DNA of 64,000 bases from a virus. A program made the position numbers and the translations under genes. Positions 941-60,565 of the stretch are shown here, in pieces. Positions within the stretch are counted from its first letter, which is position 1; each line of letters opens with the position of its first letter. The notes below the pieces were generated by a model that had not been told where the DNA came from, did no database searches, and was given only the letters and a program-made list of their open reading frames with translations. The DNA lies in IMG/VR virus record IMGVR_UViG_3300030093_000028, positions 4,052 to 68,051 of that record. One strand, written 5' to 3'.

Positions 941-2479
941 TTATCTATCATTCTTCTCGCCATCGCGCGTTTTTTCGCCCTCAACATCAAGCGTCTCTCC
1001 GCGATCTTCAGCCGTTGGTCTACCAACCTCTTTCTCTGCAACCTGAGCAGGTTCAGTATAGGAGGTAGCAAGAGGAACAAAGTTATTATGGAAATCAAAG
1101 ATATCATTATGCAAAATAAAAGACCCCAACGTTCTAGAAGGAGTCATATCAAGAGACGCAAGCCATTTATCGATACAAGACACGCCAAGCGTTACAGCGT
1201 CTTTATATCTCTTGCTCACGTTATCTCTGTTAAAGATAGTTATATCAAGGAGATAAAAATAAAATTTGAAAGCTTTTTTATTATAATTTCTAAGCTTTAT
1301 ATATCTATTAGTCCATCGCTCAAGCTGTCTGTATACTCCGTATACGAAACCAGCATCGTTCTCAACGGACATTGTTACAGCCGTACCAGAAGACGAACCG
1401 TTAAACAACTCTTTAGACTCGCCAGATGAATTATAAAGCTCATCAATTGCATCAGAAACATTATTTCTTGTGTTGCTAGAATCCTTAAAGCTTATTGCTT
1501 CACCATCTGAACCAAGAGTATGAATCAGTCCAATATCATCGTTCATACTCTCTCTGTTAATTTCAGCAAACACACTAAGCGTTTCAGGGGTAAGGAGTGG
1601 CTTATCTACCGTAGTCTCATCAATAGGAACTTTAACCGCAATCGCCTTATAGTTATCGGTTCTAGCAGACTGCAACTTTAACTTCTTATAAGTATCAAGA
1701 TCTATAATGTCCTTAACCATTCCTATGAGCATTGGATATGGATATGTCCATTGACTATTCAGCTTAATGCAAATCTGCTTATCTGCTGGCGGCTTATACC
1801 AAAAAGATGCCTTGCCATCAATATAATCCAGATAAGCTTGCTGTACATAATCTGGATACGCAGCTAACTCACTTTGCTTTATCTTGCCAAGGTCAATTTT
1901 AAAATTATATAAACCATCTTGAACCTGATATAGCTGACATATCCTATAATCTATCTTAAGAAAGAAGAAATCTGTCGAACTTTCAACAACAAGTCCGCAA
2001 TAAATATCTTGATACGGTAGATATCTCATTATTTTTGCAAACTCATGTTTTAAATTCATATCTTCGAGCTTTGCCGCAAGCTTAGAATATTGTTTCTTAA
2101 TCGTATCTGTCTTTGCGGTATTCTGGACATCATATAAATCAACCCACCAACAGAATAGAGCCATATTGCTATAAAGGCTATTCAGTCTATAATAGTGCGG
2201 GGATACACGCATGAGGTAAGACGATGCATCAAGAAGCAAACGCCAATATTTTTTCGGATGTTTGATTGCGGTATCAATATCGCTTAATTTAATATCGCCA
2301 ATACATCCAGTTTCAAGAATCTCAGTATTTAGAAACAAGTCGTTGCGCATTAATCTGCTAAACGCGCTCCAATCAATCTTGCCATCTTTTTCTGATTTCT
2401 TAAACGACTCTTCATCATGAAGATAATCTTCTTTTGTATATTCAGACGCATATTCAGAATCTAGTTTATCATTAGCCAT
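941..2479 (-). CDS. putative portal protein
   Basis: 512-aa ORF immediately downstream (minus sense) of the terminase large subunit. Size, position and acidic C-terminus are typical of portal proteins. No diagnostic motif was seen. Confidence 0.45.
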   Translation of the reverse strand: MANDKLDSEYASEYTKEDYLHDEESFKKSEKDGKIDWSAFSRLMRNDLFLNTEILETGCIGDIKLSDIDTAIKHPKKYWRLLLDASSYLMRVSPHYYRLNSLYSNMALFCWWVDLYDVQNTAKTDTIKKQYSKLAAKLEDMNLKHEFAKIMRYLPYQDIYCGLVVESSTDFFFLKIDYRICQLYQVQDGLYNFKIDLGKIKQSELAAYPDYVQQAYLDYIDGKASFWYKPPADKQICIKLNSQWTYPYPMLIGMVKDIIDLDTYKKLKLQSARTDNYKAIAVKVPIDETTVDKPLLTPETLSVFAEINRESMNDDIGLIHTLGSDGEAISFKDSSNTRNNVSDAIDELYNSSGESKELFNGSSSGTAVTMSVENDAGFVYGVYRQLERWTNRYIKLRNYNKKAFKFYFYLLDITIFNRDNVSKRYKDAVTLGVSCIDKWLASLDMTPSRTLGSFILHNDIFDFHNNFVPLATSYTEPAQVAEKEVGRPTAEDRGETLDVEGEKTRDGEKNDR

Positions 2480-2516
2480 TAAACCGATTCACCTCCTTAA
2501 TATGCGTACAAAACCA

Positions 2517-4298
2517 TTAGTACATATTTGGTCTTTTATTCAATCTTTTCATTTGTTTTGCATAAGATTTAATATCAAAAGAAACCTGCGGCTTCTGAAG
2601 AATTTCACGCTCAAGCTGACACTGAACCCAATAATTATACGCCAATGAACTGTAGCGGTCTTTTCTCATACCAGTCTTTTCTATAATTTTGATATTAGTT
2701 CCCTTTATCTCATGCTCAAGCTTTGTAAGCTCATATATCAACAATGTCGTTTGTATATACGGCATTTTATATTGTAATTGCTCAAAAGGCTGCATCTTTG
2801 CATAGCCTTTTATTTTATCTTTTAAGATTTCTTCTGCTTCGAATTCCGAGACAAGAAGATTAATCTTACCCTGTTTAAATCCGCTTCTAAGCAAAATACA
2901 AATCTCATTATTAAAAGAAGCGCTCGCTTTAATAGACCAAATAACTTCTGGGGCATTAGACACTTTACATCTAGCAGCCATATCCTTATCATTACAACAA
3001 GATAGAGCGCCATATAACTCGCCTGTCTCTGGGTCTACCATGTCTCTGATAAGAGCATCGAATACGCCAAGACCGCTGCCATTCGTATCGATTACAAGGT
3101 CTGTGCATTTATACAGTTTAAACAATCTGCGAATCACAAGCGCCAATTCATCTGTATTAAGACCCTCGTGGTTTTCGAGATATATTATATTAGACACGTA
3201 ATTATTATTATTCGTAGGAATTGCGCTGTTAATTATAATTGCACTGGCATCGTTTCTATGCTTATTAGAAGCCATAAGCGCAACGTCTACAGACATAATT
3301 CGTCTTTCATTTGTTGCTAAATCTGGTATCTTATATGTCTTATTGTTTATAAGTGATGGCGGATATACTGCTGTTTGCAAAGTTCTTCTGCATCCGATAT
3401 CGTCAAATGAGAAGAAAGCGCCTTCTGTATCTCCGAAGAACAAGCAGTCCATCTCCATGCTCCACTTGACTTCATCGAAGTCTTGTTCAGACATCTCATC
3501 TTCAATTTGTTCACGTGATAACAAACCTTCTTTTACAGAAACTTGATACGGTAAGCCACAGATAAAATACTTCTTAGTATCATCAAGCATATTTACCGTA
3601 TAAGCCTTTGCCTTTTCAAAAGACCAATGGTTTTTATACCACGCCGAACTCATATAGAACTCTTTATTTCGTTCTAGAAGATGTGCGTATTTTGGATTAT
3701 TTAAATAATTCGGCTGTCTTGGAGCTGTAAGGAATCGTCTCAATACCGTGTTAATAGTATCTAGGTCAACCATTCTAAACTCATCGACCAACAAAATATT
3801 AGCACGTGAACCACGACCAGAATCAGAAGCGGTAACGACTTTAATCCATGAACCATTTGCAAATTCAATTACGGCCTTATTTGCGCCAACGGCAGCATAT
3901 GTAATTTCTCGTCTAAGATTTTCAGAACCAAAACCATAGTTCTTCATGAAATCGTCTGTGATTTTTGACAAAACCTCATTCGCCTGTGGTCTTGTTGCAG
4001 ACGCAATACATATCTTTGTCTTTGGGAAAAGAATGCATCTAACAACACAAAATAATGCTGTTAGCCACGTTTTTCCCTGTCCTCGCGCAGCGATATACAT
4101 AAAGAAATTATTGTGCATCATTGCATACAATAATATCTTTTGAAATAGTTTTAATTTAATATTTAAGTAATCAGCAACAAAACGATGTGGGTTAGACCTA
4201 TAAAAACCAGCCCACAATGCAATACCGTTCATAATACGTTGTGATTTTTCATTAGCGATTTCTTTTTCAGATTTTTTTCTATTAACTTTATTCGCCAT
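2517..4298 (-). CDS. terminase large subunit
   Basis: Walker A-like ARGQGKTW near the N-terminus followed by a C-terminal nuclease-like domain. Length is 593 aa. Sits in a packaging-module context. Confidence 0.85.
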   Translation of the reverse strand: MANKVNRKKSEKEIANEKSQRIMNGIALWAGFYRSNPHRFVADYLNIKLKLFQKILLYAMMHNNFFMYIAARGQGKTWLTALFCVVRCILFPKTKICIASATRPQANEVLSKITDDFMKNYGFGSENLRREITYAAVGANKAVIEFANGSWIKVVTASDSGRGSRANILLVDEFRMVDLDTINTVLRRFLTAPRQPNYLNNPKYAHLLERNKEFYMSSAWYKNHWSFEKAKAYTVNMLDDTKKYFICGLPYQVSVKEGLLSREQIEDEMSEQDFDEVKWSMEMDCLFFGDTEGAFFSFDDIGCRRTLQTAVYPPSLINNKTYKIPDLATNERRIMSVDVALMASNKHRNDASAIIINSAIPTNNNNYVSNIIYLENHEGLNTDELALVIRRLFKLYKCTDLVIDTNGSGLGVFDALIRDMVDPETGELYGALSCCNDKDMAARCKVSNAPEVIWSIKASASFNNEICILLRSGFKQGKINLLVSEFEAEEILKDKIKGYAKMQPFEQLQYKMPYIQTTLLIYELTKLEHEIKGTNIKIIEKTGMRKDRYSSLAYNYWVQCQLEREILQKPQVSFDIKSYAKQMKRLNKRPNMY

Positions 4299-4309
4299 AC
4301 AAACACCGC

Positions 4310-5323
4310 CTAATCATCGTCTATAACGGTGTCGCCAAAAATGGCATCAAATAAAGCTTCGTTGTCTTTATCGTCATCATACTCTGGCTTTTCAACCGTA
4401 TACCTTTTCATAAATTTCGTATACAGTTTTGATAAGCCGTTTTTCAAATTCATCATCTTAGCAAGATGACCGCGAAAAAATACATCGATATAAAGACCTA
4501 TATTGTCAACATCTTTCAAATCATCCTCTGGCTCTGGAATCGGCCTTGTGTTTTCCCACTTGTCGATAAGCGTACCAAATGTCTGACTGTCAGATGTGGC
4601 ATCGCCAGAATTTTGTTTCGGCTGCAATTTGGCTGTGTCAAGAAGCTTCTGGAACGTAGCCGTCAAATCCTTTGTATCCTGCTTTGCCCTAGTAGCCTTT
4701 AACAACTCAAGCTGATTAAAACACAGCTGCTTAAAGACTTCTTCTTGTGCCTTTGTATTGCACTCGTGTCTAGTAGTCCAGTCGCAATACTCATTGTAAA
4801 GAAAAATATAATCATCATTATCGAAACCATTACCAAACAACTTTATCGCTTTGTCTATGGTTTCGTTCATGTCAGAGTCATCATCTGAATATATTGATAT
4901 CGGCTTATTATTAAACTTTGCTTCATTATATCTTTCTTCTAACGTTCTATCATAACCACCTCTGTACTGTCTAAGTGGTGAAATCGAGATATAAGAAGAT
5001 ATGAGAGAGCATGTTAAATCGCCATCTTCCATTCTTTTAACAGTGGCATTATATGCATCATCGCAAAAATATACATCTAAAAACATGCATATTCGCTCAA
5101 CGGCTTTTTTTTCTGGGTTTGCATATCCGTTGGTTTTATATACGTTTAAATAATTATAATAAATTTTATTAATGCATTCTTTGCACCACGGCATCTTTCC
5201 ATATGAAGCATATAAGTCACTATTTGATTTATAAAAATCTTTTGACTTAAGCTCCTTACCACAACAAGCACAATGCAGTGTCGAAGTGGAGTCATCATTT
5301 TTTCTAGCTGTTCTTCCCGCCAT
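4310..5323 (-). CDS. hypothetical protein with N-terminal Cys4 zinc finger; possible terminase small subunit
   Basis: CACCGK...CKEC motif. Lies directly upstream (minus sense) of terL, with a 12-nt gap. Confidence 0.4.
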   Translation of the reverse strand: MAGRTARKNDDSTSTLHCACCGKELKSKDFYKSNSDLYASYGKMPWCKECINKIYYNYLNVYKTNGYANPEKKAVERICMFLDVYFCDDAYNATVKRMEDGDLTCSLISSYISISPLRQYRGGYDRTLEERYNEAKFNNKPISIYSDDDSDMNETIDKAIKLFGNGFDNDDYIFLYNEYCDWTTRHECNTKAQEEVFKQLCFNQLELLKATRAKQDTKDLTATFQKLLDTAKLQPKQNSGDATSDSQTFGTLIDKWENTRPIPEPEDDLKDVDNIGLYIDVFFRGHLAKMMNLKNGLSKLYTKFMKRYTVEKPEYDDDKDNEALFDAIFGDTVIDDD

Positions 5324-5353
5324 ACGACACTACACCACCTTTCTTCAAACAAA

Positions 5354-6661
5354 CTATTTAAATTTAATATCGTAAATACAATCAAGCCCATCTTCTGTTA
5401 TCACGGAAATCAACTGCTCTGGCTTGTTTCTAAGCCTTTTATCTAAGCAATATTCATCTCCGCCACCAGCAAACGTACCAGCCTGAAGAACCTTTGTATC
5501 ATAAGATGTAACCATTGCATTCGTATGTCTATGACCACAATAAATAATATCTGGTTTTCTACCAGTAAACATAGTTAGCTTCTGAACCATGTTGTTTAGA
5601 TTATCGCGATCACCATGCACCCCATATATCAACTGTCCGCGAACATTGAATATAGCAATGCTGCATTCAATATCGTTTTCGTGAAATACTACATTTTTAA
5701 AATTCTGTAGCTTTGCACTGAGATAGGGGATAGCAAGCAAGTCCATATTCTCTCCACGCAAATTCTCATCTTTATTCTGAGAAAGACGGGAGTGATTGCC
5801 CATGCTTACATACACATTTACAGTATTAAATCTATAACTTAACTCTGTTAAGAACTGAGACAGATAATCTGTAACAGTTAAAAACTGCTCAATGATGTTC
5901 TGATTATTTTCAATTCTAATAGTATTATGAATGAAGCCAGAGATGAGTTCGCTTAGAATGACATAGATGTTCTCTGAACCGTGACGTAACTGAACTTCAA
6001 AAATCTTATCAAGATATTGATTAATTCTATCTCGCAAAATATCGTTATTAAACTTATTGAAATAATTATCTACTTCAATACCAGTATGCACATCAAAGAA
6101 AGTGCATACGATATCATTATCTGACTTTAAAGAGCCAGTGAACTTCTTGTCTTCATCATAAAAAAGCGGGTGACAGTCGCTTTCAGAAATGCTTCTTATG
6201 ATTTGCTCTTTGTAGCTTTCTTTTCGCGCCTGTTCACGAATCATCCTACGGAGTTCATTGCGCTCATCACGAACCTTAACTTGCTGCTTCTCAAGTTCTT
6301 GTTTTTGAGATTGCAATTCTTTTAGATATTCATCATTGTCATATTTATTAAACACACCAGCATCATAAAACTTTTTTGCCTGCTGATATGGTTTTCTAAA
6401 TGCCGAGGAAGTATAAGGCATATCTTCATTGCCGATTTCCTTGTTAATGATATCGGCCAGTTCGTCCCAATTCATATCTATAATTCCAGATTCCTTGGCT
6501 TGCCCAAGTCTCCAAATATATTGTTCTAGATTTTCAGATTCGCCTTTATGTAAATCCACGTATGGCACCTCCTCATATTTTTTCATCTTGCAGTAACAAA
6601 ACAAGATGATGGTGAAATATTTGATTTTCACAAATATCTTCCAAACTTTTACTTCATACAC
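5354..6661 (-). CDS. calcineurin-like metallophosphoesterase with N-terminal HTH/coiled-coil extension
   Basis: Motifs DVHTG, GDRD, GNHS and GHRH in the C-terminal half match the D-x-H / GD / GNH(D/E) / GHxH metallophosphatase signature. The start codon is ambiguous (GTG at 6661 or ATG at 6586). Confidence 0.6.
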   Translation of the reverse strand: MYEVKVWKIFVKIKYFTIILFCYCKMKKYEEVPYVDLHKGESENLEQYIWRLGQAKESGIIDMNWDELADIINKEIGNEDMPYTSSAFRKPYQQAKKFYDAGVFNKYDNDEYLKELQSQKQELEKQQVKVRDERNELRRMIREQARKESYKEQIIRSISESDCHPLFYDEDKKFTGSLKSDNDIVCTFFDVHTGIEVDNYFNKFNNDILRDRINQYLDKIFEVQLRHGSENIYVILSELISGFIHNTIRIENNQNIIEQFLTVTDYLSQFLTELSYRFNTVNVYVSMGNHSRLSQNKDENLRGENMDLLAIPYLSAKLQNFKNVVFHENDIECSIAIFNVRGQLIYGVHGDRDNLNNMVQKLTMFTGRKPDIIYCGHRHTNAMVTSYDTKVLQAGTFAGGGDEYCLDKRLRNKPEQLISVITEDGLDCIYDIKFK

Positions 6662-6710: not shown

Positions 6711-6728
6711 GGGTGGCTAAGGCCACCC
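6711..6728 (-). terminator. GC hairpin GGGTGGC-TAA-GGCCACCC followed on the minus strand by a T-rich run
   Basis: Perfect 7-bp stem. Minus-sense downstream sequence is TTCTTTGTTTTGTTC. Confidence 0.4.
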
Positions 6729-6923
6729 AGTCTGAGTTATATCAATATTTAATTGTTATCTTGCATAACATACACGGCATAAATTATTCGTTGCTGTGAC
6801 AACCAAAAAGGAAGTCACAGCAACAACAAAGAAAGGTGTAGAAATATGAATGCAAGAAAAATACGCGAAGAGCAATCTTCGCATTTATATATTCAGCCAA
6901 CTAGCTGCGTATATAACGATTAT

Positions 6924-7250
6924 TTACTTACGAGAGCTAATCTTATCGCAATATGTTCTTGTGATGTGAGCCTTTGGAACAATCTTGCTCTTCGTCACAA
7001 TTGTCTCTCCCGTAAGATTATTAACCTTCTCATGAGATGGAACATATACCCCGTTTAATACGATACCCTCAAACAGCCTAACAGAAATATTTCTATCTTC
7101 ATTTGCTAGAGACAAAGCGTCTGAAACGTTCTCTTCAAGAGATTCATATACGCCCTTAACCGTATTCTTATCGATTCTACAATCCTTGGCAACGGCCTTA
7201 ATTAGCATATCTTTCGTATATGTAACCTTTTTGTCATCATTCTTAGCCAT
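6924..7250 (-). CDS. HU/IHF-family DNA-binding protein
   Basis: 108-aa basic protein with a ...SVRLFEGIVLNGVYVPSHEKVNNLTGE...PK... pattern resembling the HU beta-arm region. Confidence 0.6.
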   Translation of the reverse strand: MAKNDDKKVTYTKDMLIKAVAKDCRIDKNTVKGVYESLEENVSDALSLANEDRNISVRLFEGIVLNGVYVPSHEKVNNLTGETIVTKSKIVPKAHITRTYCDKISSRK

Positions 7251-7386: not shown

Positions 7387-7422
7387 TAAACATATAACCT
7401 TAATAGTATGTTATATGTTTAA
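7387..7422 (-). terminator. 13-bp-stem hairpin overlapping the stop codon of the 966-aa gene
   Basis: TTAAACATATAAC-N11-GTTATATGTTTAA, followed (minus sense) by TTTAAATTTACTGATTT. Confidence 0.45.
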
Positions 7423-10319
7423 ATATTCTGGTCGCGTGACTTTTGAGTTTCGCGCTGTTTTTTCTTTCTTAATCTGGCAAGTTCGCGCTTGTGCTCTTGC
7501 GTACATTCATGACATCTACATGTTTTTGTATCCTTGATACCGACTTCAAACCATTCTCCACAGTCCACGCATTGCACGTCTCGCGTCTCTCGCTTTACAT
7601 TACGAGAAAGATTATCATAAACGATATCTCCATAACACAGCCAAAGAGCCATCTTATTTTTGCCACCATTGATACCGTAAAGAAACTTCACGAGAATATC
7701 GACAATCTTAAAATCATCGTATCCAAACGAAGAAAGCTCTTCATATATCTCCTTAGAAATCTTTCTATACTTTAAATCGCGGCGCATCTTAGATTTTGAC
7801 ATATCGTCAGAAGAAAAACCCTTAACCGCATCGTTCAATGCAAACTGATACTTCTTATTCAGTTCACAATACTTAACAATCAACGGATCGGTTTCTTCCT
7901 TGATAATCTTACCTCTGTCTGTAAACGATATCCTGCATTCCGTTCTAACATCTCTCATCATAAGTGCATAATCAATCTTATCAAGGCCAAGCTTTCTGCA
8001 ATTGATTCTCGGATTCGGAATAATATCATTAAGCTTATTGACGAGACTGTTGTTGATATCAGATACCTGATGCAGCTTTTTATCCTTCGCATATACAAAG
8101 AAATGAGGGAGAGGGTCTTTAGTAAAACCAGTTATCAGCTCCTTTTCGTAATCTGGTCTTTCTGGTTTATACAACGTTTTAGCATAGTCGATTACAAAAT
8201 TATTCTCCATGCAAAGAAGTCTAATTACATCAATTGCACGTCTCTTATCTTCGTTTGTACCAGATATGAACACCTCGCTGTTCCAAATCTTAGAGATGTT
8301 ATTGCTGTATATTCCGATATTTCCACCAACAAATGCAGCATGAAGTCCACCGTAGATTGCAGCGTTATCAAGATGTACTGGCTCAGCTTTTCGCATATTG
8401 TAGTAAAGCGGCACAATGTCAAACTTCTTAAGATTTCTTTCCGCAACTGCAATAAGAGTCTTATCTGCAACAACTAACGATTTGTCCCCATCAACATCAA
8501 ATTGAAGAATCTTACTAATCATGTCCTTGCAGCTTGTGTATACGGCATCTGTGCCAAACCACTCTCTAACACTATCCTTTCTATCTCCATACGCATAGCA
8601 GGCAACATTTTTTCTAATAGCATGTTCCATGAAAAGATGAGGAGAGCGAAGGCAATCAAGCTTTTCATCTTTTCTAAACAACCAACAGAACACCTCTCCG
8701 TCTTCAAGCAGGCCGTCAGGATTATCTTTGCCCATAAACCAATGCTCGCAAGCGGCATAGAAGTCTGGAAGTAAAAATGTATACTTGCCATGAACCTTCA
8801 GCTTTCCAGCTTTGAATCTTTTGACCATGCTATCTTTGATATCTCTCAACTGAGACTTTGCATATTCATCATTCAACAAAGCTGGGTAAAGGTCGATAGC
8901 TTTTTGAAAAGCGGTCTTATTTGTATTATACGGCGTTGCACCGAACACATCCTTAATACTCTCAACGGAACCGCATAAATTCTCAAGCTTATTTGTTGAC
9001 TGGTAGGCAATATCTGCAAGCTCATCATCGGTAACATCAGTCAATGTCTGAAGCATCTGATAATTGATAGTAGCGTCTTTGATGCGCTCTTCCTCGACAT
9101 TAGTTACGCCAGCTGTACACCCATATCTCTTGAACATCTCCTTATATTGATCCCAAGATTCATAATATTTGTTCATCTTAAACTGAGATTTGGTAAAGAT
9201 AATTTGAATATCTTCATCAACGATGTTATGCTCTTTGCCATATATATCCTTGATAACAGGAGAGCATTCATTCACTTCGATGAACTTCTTAAAGTCAAAA
9301 GCGCCAAGAAGACCCTTTACCCACGGTAGCCTAACCATACGATTTCTACCAAGACAAGGCAACATCATTCCCGCTCCATCAGTATGGGGGATAGGCACAT
9401 TGCCAGTTATCCTCTTGATGGAATAGTCCGCATCGTCAATTAAATCATATGTACCAATAACATCAGTCTCAAAATCATCGATAACGATAGTCTTGTCAAT
9501 GTCGAACTCATTCCATACATCGGTTGCAGAATTTGCAAGCGCCATATAAGCAAGATGCTTATTGGGATTGTTACCGCCATGTGCATTGATGTCGTCAATC
9601 GTCAACCCGCACATAATCGTCTTCTCATGCTTTTTCCAAGTTGACTCTTTGACGAATACACATTTCTTTGTGCGAATCTGCCCAGCAGAAGAAGTGAAGT
9701 AAATATACTTCTCGCCATTGTATTCGAAACCATTGTAAATCAAGTCTTTAATCATATCGAAATAATAGACCTGAATAACCATGAAGTCTTCGCATAGCTC
9801 ATCTGGCTTGGCACCGATGGTTCTTGTGAAATATGAATCGAATACAGAAATGATGTTCTTTTCTGATACTTGGTTATCACGAAGCATTCTTGTGTGGTGT
9901 CTACCGTCTGACGCAATATTCGATTCAACCTTATTAGACAGAATGGTAAGTAGTCTTTCCTTAGTTTCGTTGATCTTTGTGTTTTTAAGAGATACCAGAT
10001 TCTTCAATCGGCGATACTCGCAACCAAGCTCACTCAGCTCTTTGCTATCATCTCCAAACAAAGAAAAATCATATTCGTCCTTAGCAATAGATGCAAGACC
10101 ATCTTTGTCAACACCGTAAGACTCAAACTTAGACTCAATGTTTCGGACACCGACTATTGTTTTCTTTGTCTTGCCATCATTGCCTTTGATAACAGCGCCA
10201 TTTAGCAGTTGATTCCTTTCACTTCTCAGCTTGTGATTAAGCCAGTGAAGGGATGACTCTCTATTGTCATAAAAGTTCCCAGTGTCTAGGGAGTAGATGT
10301 CTATCTGCTTATCGAGCAC
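7419..10319 (-). CDS. large protein with C-terminal zinc ribbon; putative single-subunit two-barrel RNA polymerase (YonO-like)
   Basis: 966 aa. The segment ...CLRSPHLFMEHAI...ILQFDVDGDKSLVVAD (aa ~556-618) resembles the beta-prime R-x-P-x-L ... NADFDGD catalytic double-psi beta-barrel signature. C-terminal motif is CVDCGEW...CRCHEC. There is no Walker motif and no PolA/PolB motif. Confidence 0.4.
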   Translation of the reverse strand: MLDKQIDIYSLDTGNFYDNRESSLHWLNHKLRSERNQLLNGAVIKGNDGKTKKTIVGVRNIESKFESYGVDKDGLASIAKDEYDFSLFGDDSKELSELGCEYRRLKNLVSLKNTKINETKERLLTILSNKVESNIASDGRHHTRMLRDNQVSEKNIISVFDSYFTRTIGAKPDELCEDFMVIQVYYFDMIKDLIYNGFEYNGEKYIYFTSSAGQIRTKKCVFVKESTWKKHEKTIMCGLTIDDINAHGGNNPNKHLAYMALANSATDVWNEFDIDKTIVIDDFETDVIGTYDLIDDADYSIKRITGNVPIPHTDGAGMMLPCLGRNRMVRLPWVKGLLGAFDFKKFIEVNECSPVIKDIYGKEHNIVDEDIQIIFTKSQFKMNKYYESWDQYKEMFKRYGCTAGVTNVEEERIKDATINYQMLQTLTDVTDDELADIAYQSTNKLENLCGSVESIKDVFGATPYNTNKTAFQKAIDLYPALLNDEYAKSQLRDIKDSMVKRFKAGKLKVHGKYTFLLPDFYAACEHWFMGKDNPDGLLEDGEVFCWLFRKDEKLDCLRSPHLFMEHAIRKNVACYAYGDRKDSVREWFGTDAVYTSCKDMISKILQFDVDGDKSLVVADKTLIAVAERNLKKFDIVPLYYNMRKAEPVHLDNAAIYGGLHAAFVGGNIGIYSNNISKIWNSEVFISGTNEDKRRAIDVIRLLCMENNFVIDYAKTLYKPERPDYEKELITGFTKDPLPHFFVYAKDKKLHQVSDINNSLVNKLNDIIPNPRINCRKLGLDKIDYALMMRDVRTECRISFTDRGKIIKEETDPLIVKYCELNKKYQFALNDAVKGFSSDDMSKSKMRRDLKYRKISKEIYEELSSFGYDDFKIVDILVKFLYGINGGKNKMALWLCYGDIVYDNLSRNVKRETRDVQCVDCGEWFEVGIKDTKTCRCHECTQEHKRELARLRKKKQRETQKSRDQNI

Positions 10320-10523: not shown

Positions 10524-11462
10524 CTATATCATCCCAATCTTCATCAGCAGCTTCTTCTTGTTTGAAATCTCGCGCATATAGTAGCCCTCACCGCAAGTCA
10601 TCAGATAGCCGTTCTCACGTTTGTACATATTGCACACGAGAGTGTGGTTGGTTCTCCATTTGCCGTCAACCTTGACTCTCGGCAGCGGCTCATAATAGAG
10701 AAGTCCAAGTTCATACAGCACCTTTACCGCCTGCGACATTGCTCTTTCTGAAATACCAATCTCCTCAGCTTCATCACGATAGAACATATTCATGACCTCT
10801 GGCTTCTTTGTTCTTCTGCTTTCAACTGGATTTTCATGACATGCATCTTCGTTGGATAGCCTATTTGGCCTATTTCGTATATTCATCTTAAGGTATGCGT
10901 ATACACGAAGCAGGATATCGTTGTTCACATATTTGCTCTTGGTGTCATATTCCATAATCTTCTCATACTCATCAAGATATACGATGGCGAAGTAATCCGT
11001 ATCGCATTCGTCCTTCACTTTTCCGTTGTTGAATTCGGCAATGCACATCTTGGTATTCTCGATACCGCCATCAAGAGATAGGTAGCCAAGATCGCAAAGG
11101 TCATTCACGGCAGATACAAACTTAGAGTTTATACCGCGACTGTGCCTATCAGAGTTCTTACCGTGCCATTTGACCATCCAGTTGATATTGAACATCACCT
11201 TATCGTCCAGACCTCTTCTCACGGCAAAGAACATAAATGTCGTGATAAGCATATCATTTGAATCGCTGTTGACGATAATCGCTTTGGGGATACGAAAGTA
11301 AACACCGTCATTACCATCAAGCTTAGACTTTGAATCGTATTCATATAAGGTATTATCAGACAATTTGACACCTCCAAGCAAGTTCAAAACATTTGAATTA
11401 TACCACACTTTCCGTGGACAACTAATAGAAATCTTTAAGTTGTCCACGTTTTTTGTGGACAA
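10524..11462 (-). CDS. winged-helix DNA-binding protein (replication initiator or transcription regulator); 5' end overlaps operator palindromes
   Basis: C-terminal AEEIGISERAMSQAVKVLYELGLL is HTH-like. The annotated TTG start lies inside palindrome 1. The nearest in-frame ATG is at 11252. Confidence 0.5.
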   Translation of the reverse strand: MSTKNVDNLKISISCPRKVWYNSNVLNLLGGVKLSDNTLYEYDSKSKLDGNDGVYFRIPKAIIVNSDSNDMLITTFMFFAVRRGLDDKVMFNINWMVKWHGKNSDRHSRGINSKFVSAVNDLCDLGYLSLDGGIENTKMCIAEFNNGKVKDECDTDYFAIVYLDEYEKIMEYDTKSKYVNNDILLRVYAYLKMNIRNRPNRLSNEDACHENPVESRRTKKPEVMNMFYRDEAEEIGISERAMSQAVKVLYELGLLYYEPLPRVKVDGKWRTNHTLVCNMYKRENGYLMTCGEGYYMREISNKKKLLMKIGMI

Positions 11463-11546
11463 GTGTAAAAAGTAACTGACTTGTCCACGTTTTTTGTGGA
11501 CAACTATACCATTATACCCCTACTTGTCCACGTTTTTTGTGGAAAT
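11412..11546. promoter_or_regulatory. operator-like cluster: three TTGTCCAC-N7-GTGGACAA palindromes at ~42-bp spacing plus one half-site
   Basis: The palindromes lie at 11440-11462, 11481-11503 and 11524-11546 (the last has a degenerate right half). The half-site is at 11414-11421. The extended motif GTGGACAACTATACC is shared with the second cluster at 20181-20287. Confidence 0.65.
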
Positions 11547-12589: not shown

Positions 12590-12680
12590 AAAAACTAACC
12601 CCCTATAGCCCACACAAAAACTAACCCCCCATATAACGTTCAAAAAAACCAACCCCCCATATAACGTTCAAAAAAACCAA
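12590..12680. repeat. C-tract repeats, including a tandem 28-bp duplication of AACCCCCCATATAACGTTCAAAAAAACC
   Basis: The two copies lie at 12623-12650 and 12651-12678. The related unit AAAAACTAACCCCC lies just upstream. Confidence 0.6.
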
Positions 12681-12710
12681 CCCCCTGTTTAGAACGAACG
12701 ACACAACGAA

Positions 12711-12896
12711 AGTTTTCAACAGGTTTTCAACATATCTAATACCATTAAATAGTTTTCAACAGAGTTTTCAACAACTTTTCAACAGATCCATGACTTTTCA
12801 ACAGAGTTTTCAACAACTTTTCAACAGATCCATGACTTTTCAACAGAGTTTTCAACAAAAAAAGTTGTACAACAAAGTTTTCAACAAACCTAATAC
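12711..12896. repeat. array of ~11 TTTTCAACA direct repeats, including an exact 42-bp tandem duplication
   Basis: The unit cttttcaacagatccatgacttttcaacagagttttcaacaa occurs twice (12775-12816 and 12817-12858). The region is non-coding, and ORF 12790-12981 is a repeat artefact. Confidence 0.65.
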
Positions 12897-20060: not shown

Positions 20061-20180
20061 GAATAAGACTGGGCGGATAATCTATTCGCCCTTTTATTTT
20101 CTTGTCTGTATCATATGGAAAAAATCTTGCGAAGCATCTTTATCTATTTTGTATATATCTCTTTTGTTAGGAATGTTCAT

Positions 20181-20287
20181 TTTTCCACAAAAAACGTGGA
20201 CAACTATACCCTATTTATGATACTTGTCCACGAAAAGTGTGGACAAGTAGGAGAGTTTTGCAACTTGTCCACGGAAAATGTGGACAA
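20181..20287. promoter_or_regulatory. second operator-like cluster: three TTGTCCAC-N7-GTGGACAA palindromes at ~42-bp spacing
   Basis: Sites at 20181-20203 (degenerate left half), 20224-20246 and 20265-20287. The first site carries the same GTGGACAACTATACC extension as the cluster at 11440-11546. The cluster lies upstream of gene 20456. Confidence 0.65.
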
Positions 20288-26060: not shown

Positions 26061-26216
26061 TACCTTGTATATAGGTTATAATAGACGGGTGGAACATTTA
26101 TAGTTCCACCCTTTTTTATTTTCAAAATTGACTGCAAAAATATGAGCTAACTACTTGATAACTACATTGATATAAGGTAGAATATAGTAAAGAAAGACGA
26201 GAGGAAGGGATTGATA

Positions 26217-27020
26217 ATGGCTAGTCCAGCATTTGCGCCAGTTGTTGTGGAAGAAAAGCAGCAGAACAATATCATTCCGTTTAGTGTTATCATTGGCACT
26301 AAAGATGTTAAGCCTAAAAGTCCGAAGGCTCGTGATAATAGCGGTGGATTAAAGCCTGCTGGTGTATCTTCTGAGGTGTATGCTTTCCGTACCGATGAAG
26401 AGATTAAGTCTATGATTGATGTGTTTGACAAGCATATCAATGAAGCTACCGATGAACACCATCGTCAGCTTGCCAGTCGGAACAAGCTGCTGTTCGTTAT
26501 TGGTATCAATGTCGGTCTGCGTGCAAGCGATTTGATTACGCTTAAATGGAGTTTCTTCTTGGACGGTGTTGAGGACGGGGAGTATAAGTTTAAGGACTTC
26601 TATACTTTGCAACCTAAAAAAACACGTAAGCAGAAGAAGTTTGTCAAGTTGTTCTTTAATAACACCGTGAAGAAAGTTATTGTAGAGCACCTTAATGAGT
26701 TCCCTGCGGATAATTTAAACGAGTATATGTTTAAATCCCGTGAGGGTGACGGCGCTATTGCAGCTACTACTCTTTGGCGTATTATCAAGAACGCAGCTAA
26801 GGAAGCTGGGATTAACCAGAATATCGGTAGCCATTCCTTGAGGAAATCATTCGGCTTTAGGGCATGGCACGATGCGGAAGATAAGGATAAGGCGCTTGTC
26901 ATTCTAAGCTATGTGTTCAATCATAGCAGCGTAGCTACTACACGAAAATACATCGGCATTATGGATGATGAAATCAAAGACGTGTTCGACAGTCTTGAGC
27001 TTGGTTATGATTTTATTTAA
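26217..27020 (+). CDS. tyrosine recombinase / integrase (small, XerD/FimB-size)
   Basis: Box I GLRASDL. Box II HSLRKSFG plus NHSSVATTRKYIG, which carries the catalytic Tyr. Confidence 0.8.
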   Translation: MASPAFAPVVVEEKQQNNIIPFSVIIGTKDVKPKSPKARDNSGGLKPAGVSSEVYAFRTDEEIKSMIDVFDKHINEATDEHHRQLASRNKLLFVIGINVGLRASDLITLKWSFFLDGVEDGEYKFKDFYTLQPKKTRKQKKFVKLFFNNTVKKVIVEHLNEFPADNLNEYMFKSREGDGAIAATTLWRIIKNAAKEAGINQNIGSHSLRKSFGFRAWHDAEDKDKALVILSYVFNHSSVATTRKYIGIMDDEIKDVFDSLELGYDFI

Positions 27021-28719: not shown

Positions 28720-30340
28720 ATATTTAGTCCGCTGATGCAATGCGGACTGCTACGAAAAAAGTTTTCAAAATTTTCTAAAAAGTTGTTGACATAGATATAG
28801 GCACCATGTAATATAGTTGATGTCAGAAAGAGACGCGGACAAATCGCAGATCAATCTGATGAGCACCTTGAGAAAAGAAGATGGAAAAAGTTCAAAAAAG
28901 TTCTTGCAACTGATAAAGTTAGATGCTATAATATCTGACACAGAGAAACGGAAGTTTCCAGTTGCACCTTGATATTTACATAGAGTATCAGCGTTGAGAA
29001 ATCAACGCGAAGGATTGTTTCAACCATGTGTATTCACGACTCCACGTGGTCATGGGCGTGTTCGAGGAGTCCCACTATGGAGGATACCCCATAGGTAGGC
29101 TTTGCCAGATGTAGGTAACTGGCTTCTGGTAGAAGAGGTGGAAAATCTCAACCGAGCAGACACGGCGCTGTGATGAAACGCAAGAAAATGGTATCGCTAA
29201 CTGGTTGCTATCGCAATAGATATGGAATATATTCCATTGAACCAAGTAGAGGGTAGTGTGGCAGCTATGCCAATCGCTTGGAGTGCCATAAGATAGTTGT
29301 CCAATTGATGCTGGTAATCAGCTATAAGACCAGACGCGAGTACGAGTAGCCCAAAGTTGGATTGTATTAGAAGATTAATATGCTGAATGGTGGGTGAAAG
29401 TTGTTGGTAGCCAATCCAGCCATAGATTGACGTAAAGTCGGGATGGAAAGATATGGGGTCGCTCCCTGTGTCTCAGCTCCATTTCCTATGTTACCGAATT
29501 ACCACTACGTTTTATGAAGGTAAGGCGAAGGCCTGAGACAATCTTTCGCGTTGGTTTGCTTGACCGACAAAGCGAGGTTCGATTCTGTGTTAGTCTTTTG
29601 GTTGATTTCACTAACGCAGATGGTACGGTACGATTCCGTAGACGGAAAATGTTTTGACTCCTTTCTGTTTTGGTTTAACGGTTGTTCCTTGCGTGTGAGT
29701 TATTTGACTTACGTTTTCATTTTCCGTCAACGCTCAGTCCCAAGGTTTACGATGGAGATAGCTACCTGACAAGTCTTGGGCGCATGGTAACGGCGTAATG
29801 TTACCCCTTGTCTTAACGGAGGAAGCGGACTGTTAAGCGTACACCGTTGCGTAAAATCGGTAGCGTTGGAAGGTCTGCCAGCGCGGACGGTATTTAAAAT
29901 AAGTGACCCCTCTGGTAGCTGGTGAGGACTTTAGTAAGCTACCACCGTCTATGGAGTATATATTATCATTGCGTGTTGTTGTATGGTATGAACAGATTTA
30001 TTTCCAGAATCTGTCATCGACAGAATGGGCAGGCCAGAGTCGAGTAGTCGTTCAATTTGCTCTTCTTTTGAGATGTCATCGTACTCGATAAGAGCATATA
30101 GACCATGCTTGAAAAGTATATATTCCATAGACGGTAATGTGACTTGGCGGTGTGGCGAAATCGGTATACGCTATGCTTTAATGGGCAAAACAGGTAGCTC
30201 CTGTATGCAAGTTCAAATCTTGCCACTGCCAATGGAACGTTACCGTCTATTATAATGGCTATGGGGGATTCGCACAACGGTTAGGGCAAGGGCCTTATAA
30301 GCTCTAGAAGAGTGTTCAACTCACTCATCCCCCACCATAA
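28720..30340 (+). ncRNA. ~1.6-kb ORF-free, GC-richer, densely self-complementary region: candidate large structured non-coding RNA adjacent to the tRNA array
   Basis: No ORF above 90 aa on either strand. Many long-range complementary pairs, for example GACGGAAAATG (29644) / CATTTTCCGTC (29720), GGTAGCT...AGCTACC (29913-29946) and CTGTCATCGACAG (30011-30023). Contains the tRNA-like element 30146-30231. Composition differs from the flanking coding DNA. Confidence 0.35.
30146..30231 (+). other. tRNA-like element with long variable arm but non-canonical anticodon arm (pseudo-tRNA or part of the large RNA)
   Basis: Acceptor GGCGGTG/CACTGCC pairs (with one G-U). T-arm GCAAG-TTCAAAT-CTTGC. Extra arm ACAGG-TAGCT-CCTGT. 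The 17-nt anticodon arm does not fold canonically. Confidence 0.3.
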
Positions 30341-30341
30341 T

Positions 30342-30414
30342 GGAGTCGTAGCTCAGTCGGAAGAGCAGGGGACTTTTAATCCCAAGGTCGTGGGTTCGAT
30401 TCTCACCGACTCCA
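30342..30414 (+). tRNA. tRNA-Lys (anticodon TTT), CCA encoded
   Basis: Acceptor GGAGTCG/CGACTCC. D-arm GCTCAGTCGGAAGAGC. Anticodon loop CTTTTAA. T-arm GGTCGTGGGTTCGATTCTCACCGAC. Confidence 0.8.
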
Positions 30415-30418
30415 CCAC

Positions 30419-30492
30419 GGACGCATGGCGCAGCTGGTTAGCGCAGATGCTTTACACGCATAAGGTCGTAGGTTCAAATCCTACTGTGTCCA
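30419..30492 (+). tRNA. tRNA-Val (anticodon TAC), CCA encoded
   Basis: Acceptor GGACGCA/TGTGTCC. D-arm GCGCAGCTGGTTAGCGC. Anticodon loop TTTACAC. T-arm GTAGGTTCAAATCCTAC. Confidence 0.75.
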
Positions 30493-30498
30493 CCAATT

Positions 30499-30580
30499 GC
30501 CGCAGTAATCCTTTAAAGACGAGGGTTGGACTGTAAATCCAATGTCTATGACTGGCTAGGAGCGTTACCTAGATGCGGCA
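30499..30580 (+). tRNA. putative type-II tRNA (anticodon GTA, Tyr-like) with atypical D- and T-arms
   Basis: Acceptor GCCGCAG/ATGCGGC (6/7 paired), disc A, then CCA. Anticodon arm TTGGA-CTGTAAA-TCCAA. Long variable region. The T-like hairpin CTAGG-AGCGTTA-CCTAG lacks the TTCRA motif. Confidence 0.4.
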
Positions 30581-30586
30581 CCAAAT

Positions 30587-30658
30587 GTCGGCTTCGTCTA
30601 ACGGTTAGGACATCACCCTTTCAAGGTGGAAACACGGGTTCGATTCCCGTAGCCGATA
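30587..30658 (+). tRNA. tRNA-Glu (anticodon TTC), CCA encoded
   Basis: Acceptor GTCGGCT/AGCCGAT. Anticodon arm TCACC-CTTTCAA-GGTGG. T-arm ACGGGTTCGATTCCCGT. Confidence 0.75.
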
Positions 30659-30667
30659 CCAAAACTC

Positions 30668-30749
30668 GGGGAAGTGATGGAATGGCAGACATCGGAGACT
30701 TAAAATCTCTTGCTCATAGAGCGTGAGGGTTCGAATCCCTTCTTCCCTA
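30668..30749 (+). tRNA. tRNA-Leu (anticodon TAA), long variable arm, CCA encoded
   Basis: Acceptor GGGGAAG/CTTCCCT. Anticodon arm GGAGA-CTTAAAA-TCTCT. Variable arm TGCTCATAGAGCG. T-arm GAGGGTTCGAATCCCTT. Confidence 0.75.
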
Positions 30750-30803
30750 CCAGATATATCAAGATATGGTATAATATCTTTTATATATAACAATTGATTG
30801 TGT

Positions 30804-30877
30804 GCGCCATTAACTCAGCTGGATAGAGTAACAGACTTCTAATCTGTAGGCCGTAGGTTCGAATCCTACATGGCGCA
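30804..30877 (+). tRNA. tRNA-Arg (anticodon TCT)
   Basis: Acceptor GCGCCAT/ATGGCGC. D-arm ACTCAGCTGGATAGAGT. Anticodon arm ACAGA-CTTCTAA-TCTGT. T-arm GTAGGTTCGAATCCTAC. Flanked by the 10-bp inverted repeat CAATTGATTG / CAATCAATTG. Confidence 0.75.
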
Positions 30878-30896
30878 CACAATCAATTGTACAATT

Positions 30897-30969
30897 GCCG
30901 ATGTGACTCAATTGGAAGAGTAACTGATTTGTAATCAGTCTGTTGCAGGTTCAAGTCCTGTCATCGGCT
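30897..30969 (+). tRNA. tRNA-Thr (anticodon TGT), CCA encoded
   Basis: Acceptor GCCGATG/CATCGGC. D-arm ACTCAATTGGAAGAGT. Anticodon arm ACTGA-TTTGTAA-TCAGT. T-arm GCAGGTTCAAGTCCTGT. Confidence 0.75.
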
Positions 30970-31015
30970 CCATGATTTTTTCTTGTCATAGTTGACATTA
31001 TATAACAATGGGGGC

Positions 31016-35916: not shown

Positions 35917-35998
35917 ATCCGTTGCTTTGACGTGTTTGAAACTAAAACAGTTGCTATAATATAACGGTAACAGGTTGAGCATAGTAGAAAGGTTCGAT

Positions 35999-37183
35999 AT
36001 GCTAGACAAAAACGGCGAGCGTATGCTTGCATATACTGTAACAGTTGATAGTATCACGCCAATTGAAAAGGCTGATAACATTGAGCTTGCTCATGTTGGA
36101 GGTTGGAACGTAATTATTCGCAAGCATGAGTTTAATGCTGGCGACATGGCTGTCTTCTTTGAGATTGATTCTTTGCTACCAGAGACAGAGTGGTCTGAGT
36201 TTTTGCGCCCAAAGAAGTTTAAGGTAAAGACCTATAAGCTCGGAAAGTTTAATGTAGTTTCGCAGGGTTTGCTTCTTCCGATGAGCATTCTTCCAGATAA
36301 TAAGGAGTATGCTATCCACGAGGACGTGACAAATCTGCTTGGTATTAAGTATTATGTAGCCGAGGATAATGCTCGTAAGGCTAATTCTAATCCCAATGCC
36401 AAGTACAATAATATGTGCGCACGTAATACCAAGCTCGCAAAGAAGAAGTGGTGGAAGTGGCTGATGAAGCGTGCATGGGGTCGCAAGTTGCTGTTCGTTT
36501 TCTTTGGTCGCAAGAAGGATAATCCTAAGAACTGGCCTGTGTGGATTAAGAAGACGGATGAAGACCGCATTGAGAATGTCATGTTCATGCTTGAGGATAA
36601 GAATCCTTATGTCGTGACCGAGAAGATTGATGGCACTTCGACTACATTCTTCCTTGATTTGACTGGTCGTAAGCCTGATTTCGGTGTGTGTTCACGTAAT
36701 GTTCGCCAGATGGATGCAGATCAGAAGAACTTTGTTTCTGATATGTCTGGCATCGGAAACGTTTACTGGGAAATGGCATTCAAATACAATGTCGAGGATG
36801 CTCTTAAGGACATTGCAAAGAAGCGCAACCATAAGCATGTTGTACTACAGGGTGAGACGTATGGTGAGTCCGTACAGGGCAACAAGTACAAGCTTGATGA
36901 GCGCCGATTTGCCGCCTTCAATTTAATCTTTGACGGAGAGCGCCTTGGTTCTGTCGAAGCAAAGAAGATTCTAGCCGAGTACGATATTCCATTCGTGCCT
37001 ATTATTGATGATAACTATATCTTGCCCGATGCTGATGACTTTGAGGAGTTCAAGCAGTCTGCTGATGGCAAGAGTGTAATCAATAAGAAGTGTCTACGCG
37101 AGGGCTTTGTGTATCGTAGTCAGGATGGACAGCGCAGTTTCAAGAACGTTTCCCGCAAATTCTTGCTTAAAGCTGGTGAATAA
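35999..37183 (+). CDS. ATP-dependent RNA ligase (nucleotidyltransferase motif I KxDG) with N-terminal OB-like domain
   Basis: Motif I VTEKIDGTS. Motif IV-like EGFVYR. Motif V-like FKNVSRKFLLK. RBS GAAAGG then ATG 35999. Confidence 0.6.
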   Translation: MLDKNGERMLAYTVTVDSITPIEKADNIELAHVGGWNVIIRKHEFNAGDMAVFFEIDSLLPETEWSEFLRPKKFKVKTYKLGKFNVVSQGLLLPMSILPDNKEYAIHEDVTNLLGIKYYVAEDNARKANSNPNAKYNNMCARNTKLAKKKWWKWLMKRAWGRKLLFVFFGRKKDNPKNWPVWIKKTDEDRIENVMFMLEDKNPYVVTEKIDGTSTTFFLDLTGRKPDFGVCSRNVRQMDADQKNFVSDMSGIGNVYWEMAFKYNVEDALKDIAKKRNHKHVVLQGETYGESVQGNKYKLDERRFAAFNLIFDGERLGSVEAKKILAEYDIPFVPIIDDNYILPDADDFEEFKQSADGKSVINKKCLREGFVYRSQDGQRSFKNVSRKFLLKAGE

Positions 37184-60300: not shown

Positions 60301-60560
60301 ATTATATTGTTACTGGCTTTGTGACATACAAGAATCCCTGTACTCCTAATCTTGTTTTGCGTAGAATTTGTGATGGTGAAGAGTTAGGGTGTAGAATTAA
60401 GCAGTCAAAGGTGTTCAAAGAAAGTCCATTTGGCATGTATTCTATCTTGAAGATTGAGGGATTTGCATACGACTTCAAGAGCAAGAAGATTAATGGCGAA
60501 TGGCAAAAGTCAGATGAGCGCGAGATTGTACTCGAAAGCTATGAATGTATGAAAGGGTAG
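57378..60560 (+). CDS. dnaE: DNA polymerase III alpha-type (DnaE/PolC-family) replicative polymerase with N-terminal PHP domain
   Basis: PHP motifs HLHSDLSNG and AFSEHG. 1060 aa. SD AGAGGGTG. Confidence 0.75.
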   Translation: MQGNYCVYHLHSDLSNGVTNVDSVTKYTEYVDYAASLGMKAMAFSEHGCIFEWVHKKQAIESAGMKYIHAVEAYLTEDSDTEDKHRDNYHCVLIAKNYDGVKELNKMVSKSFHRDDYHFYYMPRITFEELFATSDNIIITTACLGGVLNKGGNNTKKRFMKFLITNKDRCYLEIQHHNCVDQITYNKMLYVISTKTGIPLIAGTDTHCLNDEHVEGRKILQKAKNVFFSDEDDWDLTFKTYDELVAAYKTQNSLPENVYMQAIDNTNVMADSIEEFELDYSKKYPKLYADSEGTLKKKIVDGIKKRGVNKYPNFDEYKKKIQYELDTYKHNGAVDFLLLDEDYKAALKKQGVSYGYSRGSVSGSVIAYLLGITEVDSIKYNLNFERFMNKERVSLADIDTDWSKKDRYKVRDYMFNKDGLYCCDIVTFNTIAMKGAIKDVGRALGMSVEDTQTISDAVYQDDKKKDCIDTYYTDKYPELFKYVDIVKGTIVSIGNHPSGLVVSPYPVDEWFGLCSTKSNDNMISQINMKELDGLQFVKLDVLGLDCVGLINETCDLAGIPRITPDNISFDDVKVWNEIRDDCTMIFQFESSYAGDYIKQLFSDETIAKIREKNPDFSYIELMSMANGAIRPAGASYREELSVGEYRDNGHEALNKFLAPTLGYLVYQEQIIEFLHSFCGYTMGEADIVRRGFAKKTGTDKFIPKIKEGFIKTMKEKYGVEKEEADKLIENFIKVIIDASSYLFSHNHAVPYSFLGYVVGYLRCYYKLETVTTALNIYAEDDAKCLEIIAYAKRNGIELKPIKFGKSTADYTMDKKENCVYKGIASVKHCNRQIADELLELSKNKYDSFTELLKDIKDKTSINSRQLTILISLNFFSDFGKNKYLLDVVDIYDKFANSKIIAKKKMEELGVSDYLMQKYAGKETKSQWRQLDNQGLINELCNRLEDKSLDIVSQVRAEMDYLGYVNYVNPNMADDYYIVTGFVTYKNPCTPNLVLRRICDGEELGCRIKQSKVFKESPFGMYSILKIEGFAYDFKSKKINGEWQKSDEREIVLESYECMKG

Positions 60561-60565
60561 ACACA

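Follow-up and report, generated by a model that had tools for sequence, protein, structure and literature searches.

Which protein is encoded by the long leftward gene that precedes the packaging and structural genes of this virus, and which genes does that protein serve? The window analyzed here (64,000 nucleotides, positions 4,052 to 68,051 of IMG/VR virus record IMGVR_UViG_3300030093_000028) carries on its minus strand, at 7419..10319, a single long open reading frame (ORF) of 966 codons with a GTG start, as given by the ORF listing. A sequence-only reading had described a 966-aa ORF with a DxDGD signature and had proposed a possible YonO-like single-subunit RNA polymerase (RNAP). Both claims were borne out, the ORF and the quoted residues being located, and homology, motifs, fold and synteny all pointing to YonO of the Bacillus prophage SPbeta. 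The protein is very probably a YonO-family DNA-dependent RNAP whose gene would be transcribed by host RNAP early or in the middle of infection and which would then transcribe the leftward late operon. YonO itself is strictly DNA-dependent, strongly prefers DNA templates, is highly processive and requires its aspartate triad (Forrest et al. 2017, PMC5467207). Prophage induction also induces YonO, and both plaque formation and 37 late genes depend on it; these genes form one operon with a single start upstream of yonK; its promoter and any cofactors were left undefined in that study (PMC5467207), and no later paper that defines them was found.

Homology to SPbeta YonO extends over the full length of the 966-aa protein. 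A tblastn search of GenBank phages matched SPbeta yonO with 43.6% identity over 86% of the query (E = 0), Psychrobacillus phage Perkons with 41.5% over 99%, and Clostridium phage D-1873 with 47.7%; it also returned the whole set of SPbeta-like Bacillus phages and, at 22-30% identity, more distant matches that included Enterocloster, Thomasclavelia and Clostridium c-st phages. In a large protein collection, a 44%-identical match bears the NCBI name "DNA-directed RNA polymerase YonO [Bacillus subtilis]", and phrog_8308 of PHROGs (function not named) covers the ORF end to end (E 7e-240). Full-length homologues with 95-99% identity were found on many independent contigs, while a megablast of the first 25 kb of the window against GenBank phages gave no match. 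The GTG start is credible because the predicted N-terminus, M-LDKQIDIYSLDT, matches those of YonO homologues in a four-way alignment; 7 nt before the GTG stands a Shine-Dalgarno sequence, AGGAGG. The protein shares 44-45% identity with YonO over about 830 of its 966 residues, and the RSPHL, FDxDGDK and SAGQIRTKK motifs and a C-terminal four-Cys ribbon are identical, whereas YonO is shorter (839 aa). The extra length consists of an N-terminal insertion of about 60 aa, common to the gut-phage clade, and of two short insertions at aa ~683-696 and ~812-826. The closest RNAP protein cluster, at 97% identity, comprises 936 sequences, and an exhaustive phmmer search of 1.84 billion representatives (50% clustering) revealed 1264 family members at E<=1e-3, 349 of them at E<=1e-30. 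The nearest relatives in species genomes (53-65% identity) are found on contigs of metagenome-assembled genomes assigned to Clostridia, Lachnospiraceae and Bacilli, and in the chromosome of a Mediterraneibacter hominis isolate. Their taxonomy, together with strong Shine-Dalgarno usage, points to a gut Firmicutes host, probably a bacterium of the Clostridia/Lachnospiraceae, in contrast to the Bacillus host of SPbeta.

Conservation of the catalytic motifs was assessed in the four-way alignment and in an alignment of 54 homologues including YonO (44-97% identity). The stretch quoted in the sequence-only reading corresponds to C556-LRSPHLFMEHAI-568 and I604-LQFDVDGDKSLVVAD-619; its residues are present, and the gap between the two pieces is 35 aa and not 40. 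R558, S559, P560, H561 and L562 as well as F607, D608, D610, G611 and D612 are invariant in both alignments, and S211-AGQIRTK-218, D192 and the four cysteines of the ribbon are also invariant in the 54 sequences, a conservation far beyond chance. D608-V-D610-G-D612 is thus an invariant DxDGD triad, the element whose 3D>3N mutant is inactive in YonO (PMC5467207), and R558-S-P560 stands 50 residues before D608, within the spacing of about 45-50 residues between the Arg-x-Pro motif and the triad (QDE-1 R962/P964; Rpb1 R446/P448). Eight residues are invariant in all two-barrel polymerases (D709, R738, K743, R962, P964, D1007, D1009 and D1011 in QDE-1; Ruprich-Robert and Thuriaux, PMC2919709), and five of them map unambiguously to R558, P560, D608, D610 and D612. 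D192, R216 and K218 (with K219/K224 nearby) are invariant, have the right spacing and are shared with YonO. As for the second barrel motif envisaged in the sequence-only reading, a candidate basic loop (R216/K218) together with D192 was seen, and its residue-by-residue equivalence is putative.

This conservation bears on the view that the protein is inactive or repurposed (structural, DNA-binding or another nucleotidyl transferase), in favor of which only the general caveat speaks that function is deduced from homology. We find this scarcely credible, given that (i) the residues essential in two-barrel polymerases are all invariant among the aligned homologues, (ii) the family is large and constrained, as the representatives at E<=1e-30 attest, and (iii) self-splicing group I introns, typical of essential genes, occupy conserved sites in relatives (shown for aa ~711; the interruptions at 606-608 are unclassified). 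The interruptions themselves fall at two hot spots, aa 606-608 (inside FDxDGD) and aa 711, in the RNAP genes of loci L015 (3297-3609), L069 (8161-8501), L017, L043, L065, L070, L074 and L078. Rfam identifies two of the insertions at aa 711 as group I introns by score, and many RNAP representatives of the 50% clusters end or begin exactly at 608/609 or 711/712. The RNAP genes of the SPbeta-like phages Goe11, Goe14 and phi3T are also split, and the copy in the window is uninterrupted.

The C-terminal CxxC...CxxC reported in the sequence-only reading is present as well. As judged from the alignment, the four-Cys ribbon with its basic C-terminal helix is a feature of the YonO family, although the 2017 YonO paper does not mention it (the words "zinc" and "cysteine" occur 0 times; PMC5467207). 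A PDB profile search matched it to the archaeal RNAP subunit P zinc ribbon at a non-significant E of 0.33, and this match is not used as evidence. That the ribbon might help to bind nucleic acid or the promoter is speculation.

A confident AlphaFold2 model built on the 54-sequence alignment (mean predicted local distance difference test score, pLDDT, 84.9; predicted template modeling score, pTM, 0.74) contains two double-psi beta-barrels in one chain with a QDE-1/RDR2-like fold, and beta-hairpins of the ribbon at aa 912-916 and 923-927. Foldseek returned eight significant matches in the PDB, all of them eukaryotic cellular RNA-dependent RNA polymerases (RdRPs), led by Arabidopsis and maize RDR2 (E 5.5e-14), with QDE-1 at E 4.7e-11 and the range extending to 3e-9 (template modeling score ~0.45 over ~830 columns); the next match had E 0.75. 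The best matches among predicted viral structures (BFVD) were phage proteins named "RNA dependent RNA polymerase" and protein A7KVB1 of Bacillus phage 0305phi8-36. A model lacking the double-psi beta-barrel fold, or a confident alternative assignment, either of which would have spoken against the sequence-only reading, was looked for with the model and Foldseek and did not occur. Enzymes of the YonO family have their active site between two double-psi beta-barrels of a single chain; here, the C-terminal barrel would provide R558/P560 and the Mg2+-binding D608/D610/D612, and the N-terminal barrel D192 and the basic loop R216/K218.

The same matches raise the question of whether the enzyme is an RdRP that copies or amplifies phage or host RNA. 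The nearest solved folds are eukaryotic RdRPs, the relatives in Perkons, PMBT24 and TR-TP1 are annotated as RNA-dependent RNA polymerases, and PF05183 ("RdRP") is the one Pfam family above its curated cut-off for this ORF (45.1 bits against a gathering threshold of 23.8 bits, E 8.1e-12, two stretches). However, YonO, the sole characterized close relative at 44-45% identity, strongly prefers DNA and is needed for late transcription of SPbeta (PMC5467207), and the location of the gene, immediately before the late operon, suits a transcriptase, which makes an RdRP role, in our view, very unlikely. The eukaryotic QDE-1 and RDR2 (PF05183; PDB 7y7p, 7rqs, 7w82) are merely 12-15% identical to the phage protein and copy RNA in silencing pathways, whereas the characterized phage relative YonO is DNA-dependent. 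In comparison with Rpb2/Rpb1 (beta/beta-prime), the phage RNAP is one chain of about a quarter of the cellular core size, in which no trigger loop, clamp, flap or other module could be detected by sequence. Sequence and family models likewise gave no sign of the beta-prime modules beyond the double-psi beta-barrel (clamp, bridge helix/trigger loop, NADFDGD context), and the protein does not belong to the multi-subunit RNAP family. Other single-chain two-barrel phage RNAPs, gp62 and gp96 of P74/P23-45 and gp66 of crAss-like phi14:2, show no detectable sequence similarity to it; two of these, gp96 and gp66, are early enzymes packaged in the virion, and gp66 belongs to a protein of >2000 aa.

The neighborhood of the gene is that of yonO. 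The SPbeta order of yonO, yonN (HU-like), yonK, yonJ, ... yonG, yonF (terminase) and yonE (portal) is matched in the window (Table 1), and in Perkons and D-1873 an HU gene likewise comes right after the polymerase gene. Related IMG/VR contigs of 125-133 kb have in common a block of the 312-aa gene, RNAP, HU, exonuclease and yonG-like genes. From the homology to YonO and the identical gene placement we infer the same late role. The plus-strand arm, beginning at about 13 kb, bears an integrase-like gene, a ROOL RNA, eight tRNAs, RNA ligase/kinase, Sak4, DnaB, primase, DNA polymerase and an ExoV/Dda-like helicase, and the gene content of the two arms identifies the window as the divergent early/late junction of an SPbeta-like large siphophage-type genome. 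In every close or medium relative (23-100% identity), the 312-aa gene stands immediately before that of the RNAP. Its product has no family assignment, Pfam giving merely a sub-threshold MarR-like helix-turn-helix at aa 232-262, and its single-sequence AlphaFold2 model (pLDDT 39.8) was unusable; it could be a replication initiator, a regulator or a cofactor.

How, then, would the RNAP gene and the late operon be expressed? In our scheme, host RNAP would read the leftward unit (312-aa gene, RNAP, HU-like gene) from the TATAAT-bearing operator region at about 11.4-11.55 kb, and the phage RNAP would start within the 260 nt that follow the HU gene and transcribe the whole late (packaging and structural) operon leftwards, which would mirror the single start of YonO upstream of yonK. 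The 22-bp palindromes look like repressor operators, and at 11400-11545 the leftward operon that includes the RNAP gene likely has its promoter region, used by host RNAP and controlled by a repressor. Two more copies of the palindrome, at 20179-20287, bring the number to six, and a second repeat family, TTGNNN-...ATGTG(A/T)AGA...-TATGAA, precedes small plus-strand genes between about 16.9 and 21.2 kb. Both families lie in the early arm, have host-type features and are absent from the region before the late operon. The sequence-only reading had taken two conserved promoter families as fitting a phage RNAP, an argument that found no support: the repeats lie in the early arm, look like host-type promoters and operators, and argue neither for nor against such an enzyme.

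When loci with RNAPs 60-100% identical to that of the window were compared, the 260-nt spacer between the HU and exonuclease genes, which in SPbeta is 1.7 kb long, proved to be made of conserved parts. A terminator-like hairpin after the HU gene is followed by a nearly invariant 26-mer (E1), a 14-bp hairpin, a second terminator-like hairpin and a structured RNA of about 85 nt (E2). In the hairpin after E1, compensatory changes were found at 14/14 pairs with 92.9% of positions paired, 0/500 shuffles reached the observed values and slid controls were far lower; some 20 G.U cells in it favor an RNA in the late-gene sense orientation. In E2, which has 23 pairs (97% paired), 16 pairs show compensatory changes, and 0/500 shuffles reached the observed values on four of five measures, with 35/500 doing so on the fifth (further pair types). 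The second terminator-like hairpin keeps its shape in relatives but not its sequence. No Rfam family matched the spacer, nor did any match E2 when hits up to E<=1 were admitted. The window has a single copy of E1 and a single copy of E2, and the exact E1 pattern, searched in all IMG/VR contigs, was present in 23 contigs, once in each, including complete genomes of about 130 kb.

E1 and E2 occupy the same place as the start-site region of YonO in SPbeta, between the HU-like gene and the first late gene, and a single conserved start region would fit the one-promoter design of that phage. E1, as an invariant, unstructured 26-mer 5' of a sense-strand hairpin, is the better promoter candidate of the two, while E2 ranks as a candidate structured leader RNA; a plain promoter is a less likely reading of E2, since it is a covarying four-helix RNA. 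The full proposal, that E1 and its hairpin are a cognate YonO-type promoter and E2 a new leader (acting, e.g., in terminator read-through or late-operon translation), is tentative and less likely to be right than wrong. The idea that E1 begins an antisense small gene was rejected, as the reverse-strand ORFs (7-104 aa) are unconserved and the G.U pairs favor the sense strand. Alternatively, E1, its hairpin and the terminator at 6728-6711 could form a small regulatory RNA with E1 as its seed. This leads to a broader alternative, in which a YonO-type RNAP has other targets (such a small RNA, or the tRNAs and ROOL RNA) and host RNAP reads the late genes. The succession of E1, hairpin and terminator-like hairpin would indeed make a short RNA, and in relatives E1 with its hairpin (L065) or E2 (L024) stands directly before tRNA genes, as does E1 or E2 in the L045 group, an arrangement consistent with transcription starting there. 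We nevertheless regard this alternative as unlikely, as 37 late genes of SPbeta depend on YonO with one start, the gene order here is the same, and E1 and E2 are nowhere near the ROOL/tRNA cluster at 29-31 kb.

Several points weigh against the preferred reading of a YonO-type RNAP that transcribes the late operon: (i) a terminator-like hairpin (6728-6711) stands between E1 and the late genes; (ii) for the late promoter there are only candidate sites, E1 and E2; (iii) Pfam and several GenBank records call relatives RNA-dependent RNA polymerases, and sequence cannot tell template preference; (iv) D192/R216/K218 (or K219/K224) are no more than candidate equivalents of QDE-1 D709/R738/K743 and Rpb2 D837/K979/K987; and (v) a PDB sequence search with the 54-sequence profile gave no significant match, so that the link to QDE-1/RDR2 rests on Pfam and fold. 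A single-sequence search of PDB chains gave no match either, which indicates that YonO has no deposited structure in the PDB copy searched.

Does the resemblance extend to the SPbeta start site itself? The start (position 2225998 of NC_000964) was narrowed to a primer bracket, L001:11216-11409, in the SPbeta locus, and no coordinates for it were found in the SR6 paper. On the SPBc2 record, the start is expected within 60355-60573, with the landmarks CTACTCCCTTCTT at about 60504-60516 and GGATAATAGTCATTTAT. In the 1.94 Mb of collected loci there are 40 occurrences of a relaxed E1 core, [CT]TACNCCYTTCT, all of them downstream of the RNAP gene and on its strand; one occurrence falls inside the SPbeta primer bracket, and in a clade of 48% identity the core adjoins tRNAs. 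We weight this cross-lineage evidence lightly, because the pattern was relaxed after SPbeta had been seen, the profiles miss SPbeta, the motif is CU-rich and anti-Shine-Dalgarno-like, so that the resemblance may be convergent, and the coordinate is not exactly placed. The SPbeta look-alike of E1, CTACTCCCTTCTT (L001:11249, inside the bracket), was not relied on, as nhmmer profiles of both E1 and E2 miss SPbeta, and the spacer elements have no significant DNA similarity to the SPbeta promoter region. The 1.7-kb non-coding stretch from yonN to yonK, which YonO transcribes, contains a DUF3800-VIII RNA motif (RF03075, 47.5 bits) at L001:12291-12356, and the Goe14 record annotates a "skipping-rope" motif in the same stretch; structured RNAs seem to abound in the late-operon leaders of phages with YonO.

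Table 1. Features around the RNAP gene, with positions in the window
Feature	Position	Strand	Details
Four 22-bp palindromes TTGTCCAC-N6-GTGGACAA interleaved with two perfect TATAAT boxes	11400..11545	minus	upstream of the 312-aa gene
Conserved gene, up to 312 aa	10524..11462	minus	immediately upstream of the RNAP gene; true start uncertain
YonO-family single-subunit two-barrel RNAP gene	7419..10319	minus	966 aa; GTG start; stop included
Insertion of ~60 aa relative to YonO (aa ~41-105)	10005..10199	minus	small strand/helix module in long N-terminal helices; four-way alignment; model pLDDT 81-88
First-barrel segment, D192 and loop S210-SAGQIRTKK-219	9663..9746	minus	invariant columns, 54 sequences
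RxP motif R558-S-P560-H-L562, second (beta-prime-like) barrel	8634..8648	minus	alignments; PMC2919709
F607-D608-V-D610-G-D612, catalytic Mg2+-binding Asp triad	8484..8501	minus	alignments
Zinc-ribbon-like C917xxC920...C936xxC939, then basic helix aa 937-965	7503..7571	minus	alignment and model
HU-like DNA-binding protein gene, counterpart of SPbeta yonN	6924..7250	minus	directly downstream of the RNAP gene; PF00216, phrog_379
Intrinsic-terminator-like hairpin with T-run after HU gene	6863..6884	minus	
E1, nearly invariant 26-mer CATTCATATTTCTACACCTTTCTTTG	6827..6852	minus	one copy per phage genome
14-bp hairpin directly after E1	6790..6824	minus	covariation
Second terminator-like hairpin (GGGTGGCcttaGCCACCC with T-run), between E1 and E2	6711..6728	minus	
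E2, structured RNA of ~85 nt, four helices	6611..6693	minus	just upstream of the first late gene
Presumed late operon start	941..6559	minus	SPbeta order yonJ-yonG-yonF-yonE
yonJ-like exonuclease/metallophosphatase	5354-6559	minus	likely GTG start at 6559
yonG-like phrog_3314 protein	4310-5323	minus	matches SPbeta YonG
Large terminase	2517-4298	minus	
Portal	941-2479	minus	

Other features of the window concern the early arm and its border. At the switch of gene orientation and GC skew, the stretch 12599-12890 consists of dense direct repeats (three copies of 28 nt, followed by some ten TTTTCAACA units that recur every 42 nt) and is iteron/origin-like. A tyrosine-recombinase/integrase-like gene (phrog_216, E 2e-40) at 26211-27020 (+) suggests a temperate lifestyle or an Xer-like resolvase. 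A full-length ROOL RNA (RF03087, 293 bits, E 3e-66) at 29000-29553 (+) lies just upstream of the eight-tRNA array at 30145-30972 (+), one tRNA of which has an unusual anticodon loop and was left unassigned by ARAGORN. Downstream of the array, at 35975-38626 (+), an RNA ligase (phrog_968) and then a polynucleotide-kinase/HNH fusion look like a tRNA-repair type module.

YonO-like enzymes of Firmicutes phages have been noted since 2003-2010 (PMC2919709) and also appear in jumbo-phage surveys (PMC7824862); the enzyme family is already known, its assignment here will not surprise a specialist, and what the analysis adds is that candidate promoter and leader elements have been defined by comparison. 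Among bacterial-virus relatives of eukaryotic RdRPs and cellular RNAP that act as a single chain, YonO alone has been studied biochemically, and abundant gut phages of one clade, about 125-133 kb in size, encode a full-length orthologue of it in the same genomic setting. The size of the family and its relatives add diversity for structural and evolutionary work. The related genomes also reveal conserved non-coding elements, short and present once each, at the place where the enzyme would be expected to initiate, by which the question of the YonO-type promoter becomes testable; if the proposal for E1 and E2 is true, a promoter and a leader of the YonO type would for the first time be defined by sequence.

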